A stretch of DNA of 64,000 nucleotides, taken from Octopus vulgaris. Lineage: Eukaryota. Below are positions 11,528 to 58,026 of the stretch, in pieces. Within the stretch, counting starts at the first letter, position 1. Each line of letters begins with the position of its first letter. Below the pieces are notes generated by a model, which searched no databases, was not told where the DNA came from, and was given only the letters and a program-made list of their open reading frames with translations. The stretch is taken from positions 75,206,001 to 75,270,000 of the forward strand of contig OX597824.1 in assembly GCA_951406725.2 (NCBI GenBank). The letters are read 5' to 3'. The position numbers and the translations under genes are program-made.

Positions 11528-13525
11528 TACACACTAAAGAAAGATCAAAAGTCTGTCAGTTGTGATCCATGACTCATAGGGCCGATTTCCCAGCATCAAT
11601 AATGCACACACACACATACACACACACACACACACACATGCACACGCATACACACACACACACATGCATACACACACACACACACACGCGATTTTATCTT
11701 TATCATTAAAAAAATGCAACAGTTATTTATGAGGTTGACCATGCAGCTTCTCTGACCAGAAGTCAGAGTATTTTACGTTTTTGTAAATGTCAAATTTCTA
11801 GCTATTGATAAGGTAGCTTCTGCAATTGTTTCGAAAAGAAAAGGCAGGGTCAGATGAGATGGTCTTCATTCCCTTCCAAGGTCCTTTTGCATTCAAAGCC
11901 TGCTCTAACAGCTGTGCCTAGTCCTTTCTTCAAAGAATATTAGAACTATTGGAAAATTCCTTGCAGAAGTTTAAATGGAATATTAATGCTATCAATCTCA
12001 CCAGTCTCAGAGTGGGTGCAAGGATCATGGGCTCTACCCCTGCCTACAGACTCAGCAAATGATAGAAAAGAGGTCTGATTGTTTGGTTTTAGGGGTGACT
12101 TAGGGGACAAATGTGGTAAGTGGGTGTGAAGCAAGTGAGCAGATATATGTAAGTGTCTATATATATTTGTTATTTCTTTATTGCCCATAATGGGCTAAAC
12201 ATAGAGGGGACAAACAAGGACAGACAAAGAGATTAAGTTGTTTACATCAACCCCAGTGCGTAACTGGTACTTATTTAATCGACCCCGAAAGGATGAAAGG
12301 CTACGTCAACCTCGGCGGAATTTGAACTCAGAACATAGTGGCGGACAAAATACCTATTTCTTTACTACCCACAGGGGTCTAAACACAGAGAGGACAAACA
12401 AGGACAGACAAACGGATTAAGTTGATTATATCGACCCCAGTGCATAACTGGTGCTTATTTAATCGACCCTGAAAGGATGAAAGGCAAAGTCGACCTTGGT
12501 GGAATTTGAACTCAGAACGTAATGGCAGACGAAATACCGCTAAGTATTTCGCTCGGCGTGCTAACGTTTCTGCCAGTTTGCTGCCTATATTTATTCGTGC
12601 TTCTGTGTAAGAGTGGGTGTATGCATCTGTATGTGTACATATGTGTAGATGTGTGTATGTGTGAAAATATATGAATTGTGCTGGTGTCATGCACTGCTCA
12701 AGGCCTTATAACAGACAAACTGTAGATAGGAACTTCACTGCAGGCTAGCTAGTGAGCTGGTCTGCAGTGAAGGGACTTCTGGTTAGCCAGACTTCTCTGT
12801 GGCACCATTCATCCGATCACTTTCACCCTCATGGTGTATAACCAAATGTAATGAAATAAATTCTATATCAACACACTCTTGATCTCCATTGATTTTTTTT
12901 TATTCTGGAAGGATTTCAATAAAGTGTATTTTAAGGATAGATGAAAGGGGCCTTTGGCAGATTTTACATGTAACTTCCTTCTATCTTCATGATGTCTAAA
13001 GGTTGCTCAGTCAACCAAGCCTGGTAAAGGTTCATGCCTCTGAACGGACATGAATACTACAAGCACTTAAAACACATTATTCAAACAATTATACGGCCCT
13101 CAATTTCATTAAATATTCAGTTGTTATGCTACCTATCAACAGCTAGGTCACTTGAACCAGTGAGAGACAAAAATCTATTTGCCCTTCACCTTACAAGCTA
13201 ACGAAATCATTAAAAAGATTTGAAAAAGAACAGTCGTCATATTTCTTTTACTTATATTTCTTCCCTTAAGAAATATAAATTCCCTTACGTCATATTTCTT
13301 CCCTTAAGCGAATAACTTGCACCTTACACCACACCCCATGGTACTTATTAATAACTAAGTCAAATGAGGCAGCAAATGTTGAAGACTCTAGGTTTAGGGC
13401 CCATGGAGATGAGTGCGAACTCTGTGATGAAATATTTATATGATATGAATCCTTGAACACTTCGTTTGGCAGCATGATAATCCCTTAGACAACTTGGTTG
13501 GCCTTCTTTGACCCCTTGCTTGAAA

Positions 13526-13531: not shown

Positions 13532-13641
13532 CTGTGAAAAATAACAGAACAGACAAACAAAGCCCAACATACATTATAAATACATATATATATTCACACA
13601 TATAGAAATAGAATATAAAAATGTAAACATGCTTCACTCAC

Positions 13642-14238
13642 CATTGTATTTGTGTATAATGGAATCCTGGAAACTATGTATAGACACCCCTGGCCAGCCA
13701 ACCTAGCGACCTCTTGACCACCCCACTGGACGGAATCGGATGCTGAAGCTCTGACCAGTCGTTTACAGTTTGGCTTTGTACATAGATAGTCAAACGGAAG
13801 GATTTCGCCCTGTTGAAGTCCGTAGGGCTTACGAAACAGAGATGAGATTTCGGTTTTAATTTGTTCTTCTGTCCAATAGGTGGCGATACGTATCTTTTGG
13901 ACGAGACCCTTCTCAGCTAGAATGCGCCGGGTGTACCTTCTTGGGATTGGTATAGAAGTGATGCAGGTTGGCAGGAGGCAAACGATCTCCTTTGTACATA
14001 TCCGCATGCGTGTTCTGCTGTCTGTGAGCGGTGCAAGGGCATGTGTCTGGGCGGTAGCCGAGAGTGGGGCAGCAGAGTGGACTTGGGACAGAGAAGCCGT
14101 CTGGCCATCTACAGACAGTGAGATCCCTGTCGTCATGTTGGTTGTCGTGGTCAACGTGCTTACAATAGATGTTGCAGCGACGGCAGCAGCTGCAGCAGCT
14201 TGTCTCTGCACTTCCTGCACAATTGATTTCAGTGGAGC
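13642..14238 (-). CDS. Internal coding exon B (199 codons); Ala/Thr/Ser-rich linker plus domain copy 2
   Basis: Acceptor TTTGTTTCTTTCCAG|GCTCCA, donor ATG|GTGAGT, 597 nt, phase 0-0, in frame with exon A (APLKSIVQEVQRQAAAAAA...LAGQGCLYIVSRIPLYTNTM). Confidence 0.9.
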
Positions 14239-14299
14239 CTGGAAAGAAACAAATGAAGAATAAGATAAAGGTGAGATATATCTTTACTATTTATCACAA

Positions 14300-40533: not shown

Positions 40534-40579
<46 letters not shown>

Positions 40580-40585
<6 letters not shown>

Positions 40586-40968
40586 AATATAAGAGAGTGG
40601 TCACTATATTGCTCACTCTAGCACCAGTTAATCCAAAAGGTTTCAACCACGAAAATACATGTTTCCCATGAAAGTCAGTACGACTGTTAGCTCACACGGA
40701 CAGGGCAAATAAAAAATAACAAAAATACAGATTATTTTGGGACAATTGTTTCGCTATTAATGAATTAAATGTAATTCATTTAATTCATTAATAGCGAAAC
40801 AATTGTCCCAAAATAATCTGTATTTTTGTTATTTTTTATTTGCCCTGTCCGTGTGAGCTAACAGTCGTACTGACTTTCATGGGAAACATGTATTTTCGTG
40901 GTTGAAACCTTTTGGATTAACTGGTGCTAGAGTGAGCAATATAGTGACCACTCTCTTATATTTATTTT
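40580..40968. repeat. Perfect palindrome with 192-bp arms and a 5-nt spacer
   Basis: 40580-40771 is the reverse complement of 40777-40968, with no mismatch found by eye. Confidence 0.95.
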
Positions 40969-43099
40969 GTAAAAATATTATAATATGTTATAAAATATTA
41001 TAATAATCCAGGTTTCTCGTAGCACTAGGCCACTTGGTGTTGAATAAATATACTATTAAATTAGTATCTAGATAGATAGATAGATAGATAGATGATAGAT
41101 AGATAGATATAAATATATATATATATGGGGAGAAAGAGAGACAGAGAAAGAAAGAGAAAGACAGTGAAAGGGGATGAAGAAATGTCAACTACACAATCAA
41201 AATGGTGATTGAAATGATGATGTTGATGATGGTGGTGATGATGATGATGATGATAATAAGAATTAAACTATTGATGATGATGTTAATCATGACAAAGTTA
41301 ATGACATCACTGATTGCGATGGTGAAGGCAATGATAACGATAAGTATGACGACAATAATTACATCACTGACTGTTATGATGAAGGTAACGATGACAACAA
41401 GGACACCAACGATGACGATGATGATGAAAATGATGATCATGATGATGATAATAAAGATGATGATAATGATAATGGTTACAATGATGGGAGTTCTGATGAT
41501 GATGATGATGATGAGAATGGCGATGACAATAATCATGATAATAATAACCCTTTCTACTAAAAGCACAAGGCTTGAAGTTTGTGGGGAGAGGTACTAACCG
41601 ATTACAGTGACCCCAGTGTTTCACTGGTACTTAATTTATCGACCCCAAAAAGATAAAAGGCAAAGTTGACCTCAGCAGAATTTGAACTCAGAACGTAGTG
41701 ATGAACGAAATACCTATTTCTTTACTACCCACAAGGGGCTAAACACAGAGAGGACTAACAAGGACAGACAAACGGATTAAGTCGATTACATCAACCCTAG
41801 TGCGTAACTGGTACTTAATTTATCGACCCCGAAAGGATGAAAGGCAAAGTTGACTTCAGCAGAATTTGAACTCAGAACGTAGTGATGAACGAAATACCTA
41901 TTTCCTTACTACCCACAAGGGGCTAAACACAGAGAGGACAAACAAGGACAGACAAACGGATTAAGTCGATTACATCAACCCTAGTGCGTAACTGGTACTT
42001 AATTTATCGACCCCGAAAGGATGAAAGGCAAAGTCGACCTTGGTGGAATTTGAACTCAGAACGTAATGGCAGATGAAATGCCGCTAAGCATTTTGCCTGG
42101 CATCCTAACATTTCTGCCAGCTCACCACTTTAATGATGAGAATGATGATGATGATGATGACAATGATGATGATGATGATAATCACTGTGATAATGATAAT
42201 GATTACGATGATGAAAGTGATGAGGATAATGATGGTGATGAGAACGGTGATGAGGATAATCATGATAATGATAATGATGATAATGATTATGATGATGATG
42301 ATGCTGACGATGATGTCAGTGATGACAACAACCATAATGATGATGACAATTATGATCCAATGATGATGATGGTTATGACAACCAGTTCCTTTCGAGCGCT
42401 GGGCCTCACGGAGGCAATGACTGAGACCTCTGGCATTATGTTGTGCTTGAGAAGAAGACCCATCAAGTTGAGTAAAATCACAGTTGTGGCACATACCAGT
42501 GTCACACAATTGGCACCCATGCCGGTGACATGTAAAAGCACCCATTACACCCTCGGAGTGGTTGGCGTTAGGAAGGGCATCCAGCCGTAGAAAACCATGC
42601 CAAATCAGACTGGAGCCTGATGCAGCCTTTCCAGTGTGCCAGCCCAGTCAAACAGACCCAATCCATGCCAGCGTGGACAATGGACATTAAATGATGATGA
42701 TGATGATGATGATGATGGTGATGGTGATGATGACAGTAAGCACCATCACCTTAAAAAAAAAAAACAAATACATCCAGTGTTTCATTTCCAGCCTCAGAAT
42801 GCGTCACCGAAATATGAAGTGCTAGGCAGATTCTTTTATTTTCTTTTTCTTGCTTCTGCTTTGTTTTGTTGTTTTTTTATTCTTTGTTATGTGTACTCTT
42901 AAAAGAATAAGTTAGATGTCAGTCAGTGGAGCAAACTTGGTTAAAAGCAGAAAATAATGATTAGTGTTGTAATTAGAGACATCAATTATAAAATCTGTCT
43001 AGCACTGATTATAGTGTCGAGAGTCTGGTTATCTTTAATAACTTGGAGGAGGAGGGGGGGAGACAGGAGCCGAATGAAATTGAGTACTTTTCTGCATAT

Positions 43100-48561: not shown

Positions 48562-50577
48562 GAGGCAGGTTTTGCTTAACCAGATGCCTTTCCTGTCACT
48601 AACTCTCACATATTTCCGAGGCAGGTTTTGCTTAACCAGATGCCTTTCCTGTAGCTAACCCTCACATATTTCCGGGGCAGGTTTTGCTCAACCAGATGCT
48701 TTTCCTGTCACTAACCCTCAAATATTTCCGAGGCAGGTTTTGCTCAACCGGATGCCTTCCCTGTTGCTAACCCTCACATATTTCCGAGGCAGGTTTTGCT
48801 CAACCAGATGCCTTTCCTGTTGCTAACCCTCACATGTTTCCGAGGCAGGTTTCGCTCAACCAGATGCCTTTCCTGTTGCTAACCCTCACATATTTCCGAG
48901 GCAGGTTTTGCTTAACCAGATGCCTTTCCTGTCGCTAACCCTCACATATTTCCGAGGCAGGTTTTGCTCAACCAGATGCCTTTCCTGTCACTAACCCTCA
49001 CATATTTCCGAGGCAGGTTTTGCTCAACCAGATGCCTTTCCTGTCGCTAACCCTCACATTTTTCCGAGGCAGGTTTTGCTCAACCAGATGCCTTTCCTGT
49101 TGCTAACCCTCAAATATTTCCGAGGCAGGTTTTGCTCAACCAGATGCCTTTCCTGTCGTTAACCCTCACATATTTCCGAGGCAGGTTTTGCTTAACCAGA
49201 TGCCTTTCCTGTCGCTAACCCTTACATATTTCCGAGGCAGGTTTTGCTTAACCAGATGCCTTTCCTGTCGCTAACCCTCACATATTTCCGAGGCAGGTTT
49301 TGCTCAACCAGATGCCTTTCCTGTCGCTAACCCTCACATATTTCCGAGGCAGGTTTTGCTCAACCAGATGCCTTTCCTGTTGCTAACCCTCACATATTTC
49401 CGAGGCAGGTTTTGCTCAACCAGATGCCTTTCCTGTTGCTAACCCTCACATATTTCCGAGGCAGGTTTCGCTCAACCAGATGCCTTTCCTGTTGCTAACC
49501 CTCACATATTTCCGAGGCAGGTTTTGCTTAACCAGATGCCTTTCCTGTCGCTAACCCTCACATATTTCCGAGGCAGGTTTTGCTCAACCAGATGCCTTTC
49601 CTGTCACTAACCCTCACATATTTCCGAGGCAGGTTTTGCTCAACCAGATGCCTTTCCTGTAGCTAACCCTCACATTTTTCCGAGGCAGGTTTTGCTCAAC
49701 CAGATGCCTTTCCTGTTGCTAACCCTCAAATATTTCCGAGGCAGGTTTTGCTCAACCAGATGCCTTTCCTGTCGTTAACCCTCACATATTTCCGAGGCAG
49801 GTTTTGCTTAACCAGATGCCTTTCCTGTCGCTAACCCTCACATATTTCCGAGGCAGGTTTTGCTCAACCAGATGCCTTTCCTGTCGCTAACCCTCACATA
49901 TTTCCGAGGCAGGTTTTGCTCAACCAGATGCCTTTCCTGTTGCTAACCCTCACATATTTCCGAGGCAGGTTTTGCTCAACCAGATGCCTTTCCTGTTGCT
50001 AACCCTCACATATTTCCGAGGCAGGTTTTGCTTAACCAGATGCCTTTCCTGTTGCTAACCCTCACATATTTCCGAGGCAGGTTTTGCTTAACCAGATGCC
50101 TTTCCTGTTGCAAACCCTCACATATTTCCGAGGCAGGTTTTGCTCAACCAGATGCCTTTCCTGTTGCTAACCCTCACATATTTCCGAGGCAGGTTTCGCT
50201 CAACCAGATGCCTTTCCTGTTGCTAACCCTCACATATTTCCGAGGCAGGTTTTGCTCAACCAGATGCCTTTCCTGTTGCTAACCCTCACATATTTCCGAG
50301 GCAGGTTTCGCTCAACCAGATGCCTTTCCTGTTGCTAACCCTCACATATTTCCGAGGCAGGTTTTGCTCAACCAGATGCCTTTCCTGTTGCTAACCCTCA
50401 CATATTTCCGAGGCAGGTTTCACTCAACCAGATGCCTTTCCTGTCACTAACCCTCACATATTTCCGAGGCAGGTTTTGCTCAACCAGATGCCTTTCCTGT
50501 TGCTAACCCTCACATATTTCCGAGGCAGGTTTCGCTCAACCAGATGCCTTTCCTGTTGCTAACCCTCACATGTTTCC
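48562..50577. repeat. Minisatellite, 36 x 56 bp
   Basis: Unit GAGGCAGGTTTTGCTCAACCAGATGCCTTTCCTGTTGCTAACCCTCACATATTTCC; first and last unit starts are 1960 = 35 x 56 apart. Confidence 0.97.
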
Positions 50578-51482: not shown

Positions 51483-51741
51483 TATATTTCGGAATGGTCA
51501 TTTTGCCAGTTTAGCCAATAAAAACACACGCACTATATATTTGGTGTTATTTTGCTTCAGAGTTATTTATTTTTTACATTAATCTTAATCTTATTTTGGC
51601 CAGAGTGTGACGAAAGAACTCTGGCCAAAATAAGATTAAGATTAATGTAAAAAATAAATAACTCTGAAGCAAAATAACACCAAATATATAGTGCGTGTGT
51701 TTTTATTGGCTAAACTGGCAAAATGACCATTCCGAAATATA
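51483..51741. repeat. Perfect palindrome with 124-bp arms and an 11-nt spacer (GTGACGAAAGA)
   Basis: 51483-51606 is the reverse complement of 51618-51741. Confidence 0.95.
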
Positions 51742-56290: not shown

Positions 56291-58026
56291 CTTTTTCTCC
56301 TCTCTCTTTTACTTGTTTCAGTCATTTGACTGTGGCCATGCTGCAGCACCGCCTTTAGTCACGCCAATCGACTCCAGGACTTATTCTTTGGAAGCCTAGT
56401 ACTTATTCTATCAATCTCTTTTGCCAAACCACTAAGTTACTGGGACGTAAACACACCACCATTGGTTGTCAAGTGATGTTGGCGGGGGACAAACACAAAC
56501 ACATAAACACACACATGCATATATATACATACATATATATGATGGGCTTCTTTCAGTTTCCGTCCACGAAATCCACTCACAAGGCTTTGGTCGGCCCGAG
56601 GTTATAGTAGAAGACACTTGCCCAAAGTGCCATGCAGTGGGAATGAACCTGGAACCATGTGGTTGTTAAGCAAGCTACTTACCACACAGCCACTCCTGTG
56701 CCTATATATATATACACACACGCATACACACACACTAACACACACAAACACACAGAGGCACATACACACATTGCTTACAACTATATCCGACAATGAAATA
56801 CTGTGATCCCTCACCATATCGTGGTTCACCTTTTGTGGTTTATTATTGAAGCTTGTGTCAATTCCTCCGTGGGGTTGTTTTGCATTTATAATAAAATAGA
56901 TATATACAAATTATAAAAATGATTAAAAAAATATATATATTCAGTGTAGTACTGTTTCTATTTCAGGGATTTTCACCTGTCGCGTTTGGTTTTGGAACAT
57001 AACACCTGCGATATTTTAGAGATTACTGTAATCTGTAAACAACCACGACATGTTGTATACAACCACATCCTACATAACAAATATCCTGCTGAATAACATC
57101 ATAGAAGACACTCGACACAATCACATTGCAAACAGCACATATTTGCACAATCACACAATACACATATCTTACAAGGCGGCGAGCTAGCAGAAACGTTAGT
57201 ACGCCGGGCGATATGCTTAGCGTCTGCCGCTACGTTCTGAGTTCAAATTCCGCTGAGGTCGACTTTGCCTTTCATCCTTTTGGGGTCGATGAATTAAGTA
57301 CCAGTTACGCACTGGGGTCGATGTAATCGACTTAAGCCGTTTGTCTGTCCTTGTTTATCCTCTCTGTGTTTAGCCCCTTGTGGGTAGTAAAGAAATAGGT
57401 ATTTCGTCTGCCGCTATGTTCTGAGTTCAAATTCTGCTGAGGTCGACTTTGCCTTTCATCCTTTCGGGGTTGATAAATTAAGTACCAGTTACGCACTGGG
57501 GTCGTTGTAATCGACTTAATCCCTTTGTCTGTCCTTGTTTGTCCCCTCTATGTTTAGCCCCTTATGGGCAATAAAGAAATAAAAAATGTTAGCACGTCAG
57601 GCAAAATGCTTAGTGGTATTCATTTGTCTTTACATTCTGTGTTCAAATTCAATCGAGGTTGACTTTGCCTTTCAGCCTTTTGGGGTTGATAAATTAAGTA
57701 TCAGTTGTGTACTGGGGTCGATCTAATTGACTGCGCCCCCCTCCCCCAAAATTTTGAGCCTTGTACCTAGAGTAGAAAAGGATATGTTCTTATAGTTCTA
57801 CCAACTTTAGATTTTGGGCCTTGTGCCTAGAGTAGAAAAGAATACACATATCCTACACAACAACCCCCTCAATGCTACACAAGATTTCACAAATAAAGAA
57901 AACAAACAAAAACAACACAATAAGAAGCAACAAACTACCCACACCAACTGTCAATTGTTAGGACACCGTATCCTTCAAAATTTCCACACTTCACAAAATT
58001 TGCCAATGCACCTATACCTTTTTTAT

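Follow-up and report, generated by a model that had tools for sequence, protein, structure and literature searches.

The 389-bp palindrome at positions 40580-40968 of the window (the whole 64,000-nucleotide stretch of Octopus vulgaris DNA analysed) is probably the centre of a core-less retrozyme insertion, made by a Penelope-type reverse transcriptase (RT) and endonuclease acting in trans, with both target strands serving as primers. A perfect palindrome had been claimed in an earlier note on this DNA, and the arms, 40580-40771 and 40777-40968, indeed pair over 192 bp each with zero mismatches, which is far beyond chance. They surround a 5-nt centre, TAATT, in which 40772 and 40776 form a T.T mismatch and the middle base is unpaired; the total of 389 bp is therefore correct, and the word perfect is true of the arms only. 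That note had also read the central sequence correctly, including a 9-nt duplication whose copies lie at 40772-40780 and 40781-40789, as well as the start of the palindrome at a (TA)n tract, which its left end adjoins. The extent was right for the mirror, which reaches 40968, but not for the element, which runs on to 41070. No second copy of the palindrome arm was found elsewhere within the 64-kb window.

The whole insertion (40580-41070) is 491 bp long and asymmetric, and it is a piece of a 534-bp non-coding tandem repeat, whose positions are numbered here so that u1 is the first base 3' of the predicted cleavage site. Its parts and flanks are as follows.

40548..40579, no strand: (TA)n tract, left side of the target
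40580..40775, minus strand: left arm, an inverted piece of the unit from the fixed short end, u161, back to u500
40768..40789, no strand: apex, AATG followed by two copies of the 9-nt TAATTCATT
40777..41070, plus strand: right arm, a sense piece of the unit from u504 across the unit boundary to u263
40792..40811, plus strand: 3' half only of the hammerhead (3' strand of stem II TAGC, GAAA, helix III, GTC, CCAA)
40799..40806, plus strand: palindromic helix III, with predicted cleavage after 40807
within 40792..40811, plus strand: CCAA, the 3' strand of stem I
40969..41070, plus strand: element sequence past the mirror, 102 bp
41071..41109, no strand: (GATA)n tract, right side of the target

The 102 bp past the mirror are 102 of the 130 nt that separate the short end, u161, from the usual long end, u291. 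Since the right arm holds these 102 bp (u162-263) and the left arm lacks them, the right arm is no fold-back copy of the left; the short arm lies entirely within the long arm, so that DNA copying of the right arm could have taken place at this locus. The right end at u263 departs from the end rule of the family described below and is unique genome-wide. Regular use of u263 at (GATA)n targets was considered and rejected, as the only match is this locus itself, and the joint of u263 to (TA)n also has just one match in the genome. No target-site duplication is readable between the flanking (TA)n and (GATA)n. The CTGANGA sequence is absent from both strands of 40580-41070, and the earlier note had taken the CUGANGA half to be replaced by an inverted copy. 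An active retrozyme is recognised by a complete hammerhead, which this copy does not have; judged from its sequence it would not cleave itself in cis, and it is a dead, truncated fragment without the hammerhead core. Elsewhere in the window, an Ala/Thr/Ser-rich stop-free frame of 229 codons at 13597-14283 on the minus strand may be a host exon, and if it is, the insertion may be intronic.

The 534-bp repeat family is young and abundant. A search of the 2.8-Gb genome with the arm gave 1460 first-look candidates, and the 40 that were scored were mostly 100% identical with a spacing of 534 bp. At one locus (L014), five consecutive 534-bp units show 0-1 differences among them and carry the hammerhead motif in each, and runs of motif matches spaced by 534 bp occur genome-wide. 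Whole units read TTGG-CTGACGA-GCTA, a 42-nt insert, and TAGC-GAAA-CAATTG-TC-CCAA, so the layout that had been predicted for intact copies (TTGG-CTGANGA-GCTA...TAGC-GAAA-CAATTG-TC-CCAA) exists, and the 5' half of the hammerhead has 798 exact matches in the genome. Among 195 motif hits in 140 loci, where tandem units are not independent, at least 174 retain CTGANGA; a CCGAAGA variant accounts for 8 of the matches listed, with the same dependence between tandem units, and all four bases are found at the free core position 7 among the motif matches listed. The hammerhead region is predicted to fold with extended stems I and II (z = -4.3), and the whole unit also has a predicted fold (z = -8.2). 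Variation that falls mostly at the free core position, together with the predicted fold, would fit a self-cleaving RNA. The palindromic nature of helix III, proposed from the single locus, is borne out in the family, where helix III consists of two base pairs with a palindromic loop, a form thought to act as a dimer (PMC4209133). Stem II had been misread: the proposed GCTATTAATG differs from stem II of whole copies, and the supposed 5' strand of stem II in the left arm is merely an inverted copy, the real one being GCTA plus a different 42-nt insert that is absent here. In Rfam searches, the whole unit gave no hammerhead match at E <= 1 and nothing else relevant, and the 64-kb window gave hairpin matches only, below threshold.

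The longest stop-free frame in a doubled unit is about 70 aa, and the unit has no protein-coding capacity. Absence of coding capacity and at least two tandem units with a complete type I hammerhead motif, the latter seen at L014, are among the marks of non-LTR retrozymes, beside self-cleavage of the RNA and expression as linear and circular monomers, and the family fits a non-LTR retrozyme with a predicted minimal type I hammerhead. Metazoan non-LTR retrozymes have been described as non-coding tandem units of low GC content with one type I hammerhead each, dispersed as monomers to multimers, for which Penelope-like mobilisation was proposed (PMC7229834; bioRxiv 10.64898/2026.07.22.740005). The 534-bp family resembles these descriptions in being non-coding, tandem, low in GC and dispersed, with one type I hammerhead per unit; its unit length lies above the 150-450 bp given by Cervera and de la Pena 2020 (PMC7229834) and inside the 51-972 bp given by Li, Clavereau and Pollet 2026 (bioRxiv 10.64898/2026.07.22.740005). 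It differs from them in its minimal-type hammerhead with a 42-nt insert in stem II, in being known here from DNA (none of the listed public runs whose contigs hold the element is on record as RNA), and in forming inverted two-armed insertions in microsatellites; in the main text of PMC7229834 the words "inverted" and "microsatellite" have 0 occurrences.

The insertions of this family follow a strict rule at their ends. The joint of the short end, u161, to (TA)n has 329 exact matches in the genome, and that of the long end, u291, has 834; 90 of the former and 50 of the latter were parsed, in genome order within the listed places. Four loci were dropped for a mis-parsed second arm (L033, L171, L107 and L113), two of which, L107 and L113, end by eye at the expected partner site. 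Three long-end loci (L092, L096 and L114) duplicate short-end loci and were kept in the end counts and removed from the junction tests. The short-end set comprises 64 inverted, 24 simple and 2 unresolved insertions, and the far end lies at u278-296 in 56 of 58 (the exceptions being u136 and u272) and at the short end in 0. In the long-end set, with 30 inverted, 13 simple and 7 unresolved insertions, the far end lies at u156-171 in 21 of 23 (exceptions u179 and u131) and at the long end in 0. Inverted insertions thus pair two fixed ends 130 nt apart, and the same end is never used twice in the sample. As for the simple, non-inverted truncations, they recur at AT-rich spots of the unit, namely u280-288 (L036, L038, L039 and L164) and u132 (L037, L041 and L043); their likeness to the (TA)n target is a hint that the first cDNA, too, can offer a pairing site to the second target end.

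Three marks of Penelope-type insertion are present. The head-to-head inverted, 5'-truncated copy, a type that the earlier note had named, occurs at this locus as well as in the inverted majorities of both sets (64/90 and 30/50 picked loci). The tail is one-sided, as the far-end counts show, and 130 nt long in general and 102 nt at 40580-41070. The targets are AT-rich or microsatellite sequence, (TA)n and (GATA)n at this locus, and those far ends that were not selected by the search mostly abut (TA)n. In published accounts, endonuclease-bearing (EN+) Penelope-like elements carry a head-to-head inverted 5' copy with junction palindromes, together with a 30-40-nt tail at one end only and targeting of (TA)n (Arkhipova et al. 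2013, PMC3846280; Craig et al. 2021, PMC8557442), and a Penelope-like hammerhead with a palindromic helix III has been described (PMC4209133). The 534-bp family shares the head-to-head copy, junction palindrome, one-sided tail, (TA)n target and palindromic helix III, and it differs in having no ORF and a tail of 130 nt rather than 30-40; the pairing of short and long ends is near-obligate in our sample, whereas those accounts call it "often" or "optional". For the Poseidon element of Anolis (PAc), the purified protein was reported to cut and extend both target strands at AT-rich targets, with two adjacent internal RT start sites that define the tail and no strand difference in vitro, and its insertion was independent of hammerhead cleavage (Frangieh et al. 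2024, PMC11167929). In contrast to PAc, the two sites of the 534-bp family are 130 nt apart, and one of each is used per insertion.

In L1 twin priming, a single RNA is reverse-transcribed from primers on either target strand, and microhomology links the resulting cDNAs into an inversion; the second primer anneals at an internal position that varies. The 534-bp family, by comparison, has a fixed position for each of its priming sites, and its arms may overlap in the stretch of RNA that they represent. The inverted two-armed insertion of Penelope type is already known; the present family departs from published descriptions in the length of its tail (130 nt), in pairing its ends almost obligately, and in the signal of a single template. 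No statement of a short/long end rule that is obligate, or of twin priming in Penelope-like elements, turned up in the openly accessible main texts searched, and one may exist elsewhere.

The arms themselves indicate what they were copied from. For 35 of 78 insertions, each arm contains unit sequence that the other lacks, so that the arms in general were copied from a template and not from each other. Over 14,667 sites present in both arms of an insertion, 62 differences were counted (0.4%), compared with a divergence of 3.1% between insertions, and in 58 loci 306 variants were common to the two arms while 61 occurred in a single arm. Private variants common to both arms mean one template molecule or one donor locus; they demonstrate a common template or donor, not a circular template. 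Moreover, 91 of the 140 arms picked read straight through a cleavage site, which makes the template an uncut multimer or a circle. Arms stop inside the hammerhead at 15/87 and 12/87, where 14 in 100 are expected, and 5 of 17 coincident apexes fall there; the apex position at this locus is therefore not special in the sample. Nor do the junctions cluster at the cleavage site, with stops within 5 nt of it in 2/87 and 2/87, and in 0/37 simple truncations. The stops of the two arms are no more than 15 nt apart in 17 of 87 insertions compared with 5.1 in shuffles, only 1 of 20,000 of which reached 17, and two fully independent stops do not explain this excess. By eye, short inverted repeats that occur naturally in the unit underlie many of the coincident apexes, and a few apexes are blunt (for example L056 and L173). 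At L153, a slippage-type insert is found at u499-502, which matches the unit position of the apex at 40580-41070.

At the apex of the present insertion, the left cDNA end could form a 4-bp fold-back over a 4-nt loop, which is barely stable (-0.1 kcal/mol); with 5 added bases it would become a 9-bp hairpin (-5.6 kcal/mol), and the extended end matches the right cDNA end via a CATT repeat, 9 nt out of register. The 9-nt duplication might thus reflect a 4-bp fold-back that grew by 5 nt and was then joined with a 9-nt shift in register, and the fold-back to which the duplication had been attributed in the earlier note is a fair account as far as such a short one is meant. Alternatively, an extra untemplated T at 40776 may have joined the arms, which would explain the sequence equally well.

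On the reading preferred here, a Penelope-type RT/endonuclease supplied in trans would cut a TA-rich microsatellite, and both cut strands would act as primers. One target strand would prime cDNA at u161, while the other would prime downstream, usually at about u291 and here at u263, either because priming was irregular or because a small deletion followed. On a single template, probably a circle or multimer, the two cDNAs would extend toward the 5' end of the RNA, stop near u500-504 and be joined head to head; the left cDNA end would fold on 4 bp, add 5 nt and anneal to the right end via the CATT repeat. A more specific version is quite possible and is proposed tentatively: the enzyme, perhaps a dimer, might grip one circular RNA at two sites 130 nt apart, one for each cut strand, and copy round it, after which a fold-back seed finds the other cDNA and gives rise to perfect palindromes.

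Copying of one arm from the other has to be weighed against priming from both strands. The earlier note had proposed a snap-back of the whole arm on stem II, which does not agree with the 102-bp excess of the right arm, the 35/78 non-nested insertions, or the expected rate of stops in the hammerhead. With the arms swapped, the right and longer cDNA would have folded and copied itself, and the copy would have ended at u161 and joined the target; we consider this unlikely here, and a minority of insertions in the 534-bp family may have formed in this way. The arms at 40580-41070 are identical and nested as it predicts, the enrichment of coincident stops (the blunt apexes included) is in its favour, and so is the slippage-type insert at L153, at the same unit position as here. 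On the other hand, snap-back is unable to yield the non-nested insertions and requires an extra step that ends the copy exactly at u161, the left arm is excluded as a template by its want of u162-263, and many of the coincident apexes lie, by eye, on short natural inverted repeats in the unit, at which annealing of two cDNAs would be enough. Self-priming on an antisense template, which was argued for the head-to-head junction palindromes of rotifer Penelope elements (PMC3846280), would yield the layout and orientation seen here. It predicts neither outer ends that are always paired and fixed nor non-nested arms, and a Penelope protein assayed in vitro uses the sense RNA as template, starting at two internal positions and extending each target strand (PMC11167929). 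This route appears less probable still.

That the palindrome is a fold-back artefact of assembly or library preparation could be suspected from its perfect arms and from the contigs of four public runs, which cover the element with none spanning the apex or having an empty site; the contigs decide neither way. The left mirror stops at the fixed end of the family and the element continues on the right, and 94 of 140 picked loci are inverted with scattered junctions and rule-bound ends. In view of the asymmetry, the stop at a fixed end and the many kindred insertions, an artefact is very improbable. A MITE or other DNA transposon with long terminal inverted repeats (TIRs), or a miRNA-type hairpin gene, is suggested by a long inverted repeat at a TA site and by the Rfam miRNA models that score the hairpin, and has the least to recommend it of all: the ends are unequal, the junctions variable, the units form tandem arrays with a hammerhead motif, and every Rfam score is below the gathering cut-off. 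The TIR transposon was rejected outright, given that equal, fixed TIRs are not found in all copies and the anatomy of the family contradicts it.

No autonomous partner that would supply the enzyme for the preferred two-primer route was identified among the families compared, which speaks against that route. None of 170 loci has an RT/EN ORF joined to the unit, the five tblastn-positive loci being separate adjacent fragments, so the family lacks the RT and GIY-YIG ORF between pLTRs that marks an autonomous EN+ Penelope-like element, and the predicted linkage to such an ORF comes down to unjoined neighbouring pieces. Of 6136 GIY-YIG candidates, 150 were scored and 30 read, and the genome has two young Penelope-type families bearing ORFs, with frames of 781 aa and 708 aa. 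The unit has no DNA match at E <= 1 to the 708-aa family among 29 loci, and only short AT-rich matches without clear likeness to the 781-aa family and other GIY-YIG loci; with no clear DNA likeness to either family, we infer Penelope-type mobilisation from the footprint. The 708-aa family (L244:502-2628) is very abundant and young, its frame has no Pfam hit, and the motifs reported for the Hydra clade (PMC8557442), RWK, DKT and CxCx5C, are present in it. Its short and long ends are about 66 nt apart, one per side, in 11 of 11 loci showing both ends (30 loci read), a pairing like that of the 534-bp unit, which favours the preferred reading. As separate observations, the terminal repeat of this family contains a variant hammerhead-like core, and the young 781-aa family (L123:2626-5990) has an RT and GIY-YIG frame, an upstream frame of 479 aa and, in its 3' region, what seems by eye to be a hammerhead variant with a U3-A8 core.

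Other repeats in the window and genome were also observed. A second perfect palindrome at 51483-51741 (arms 51483-51606 and 51618-51741, 11-nt spacer) adjoins (TA)n and belongs to another young family with 354 candidates; its apex lies within the 3' half of a hammerhead-like motif, and 2 of 6 other loci of that family have a CTGATG-type core and stem upstream of the same GAAA. A palindromic insertion at L069:120-570 represents a third hammerhead family, with the TTGG/CCAA stem I of the 534-bp unit, a long stem II and a palindromic helix III, and it ends about 35 nt past the cleavage site at (TA)n. In addition, the window contains a young tandem array at 48562-50577 (36 copies of a 56-bp unit, 96% matches), as well as 184-bp tandem units of an abundant dispersed repeat at 41623-42065, 12171-12538 and 57221-57581.

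If the insertion is transcribed, its 192-bp perfect hairpin could be a source of double-stranded RNA. The formation of inverted ends and tails in Penelope-type elements has been called undefined (PMC8557442, PMC11167929). From hundreds of young insertions, the 534-bp family yields rules that can be counted, namely two fixed priming sites with one at each end, a single template, junctions independent of the ribozyme, and an excess of apexes at which the stops of both arms coincide. If the model of one circular RNA held at two sites is true, the end rule and the coincident apexes would be a genomic record of the second-strand step of Penelope insertion.
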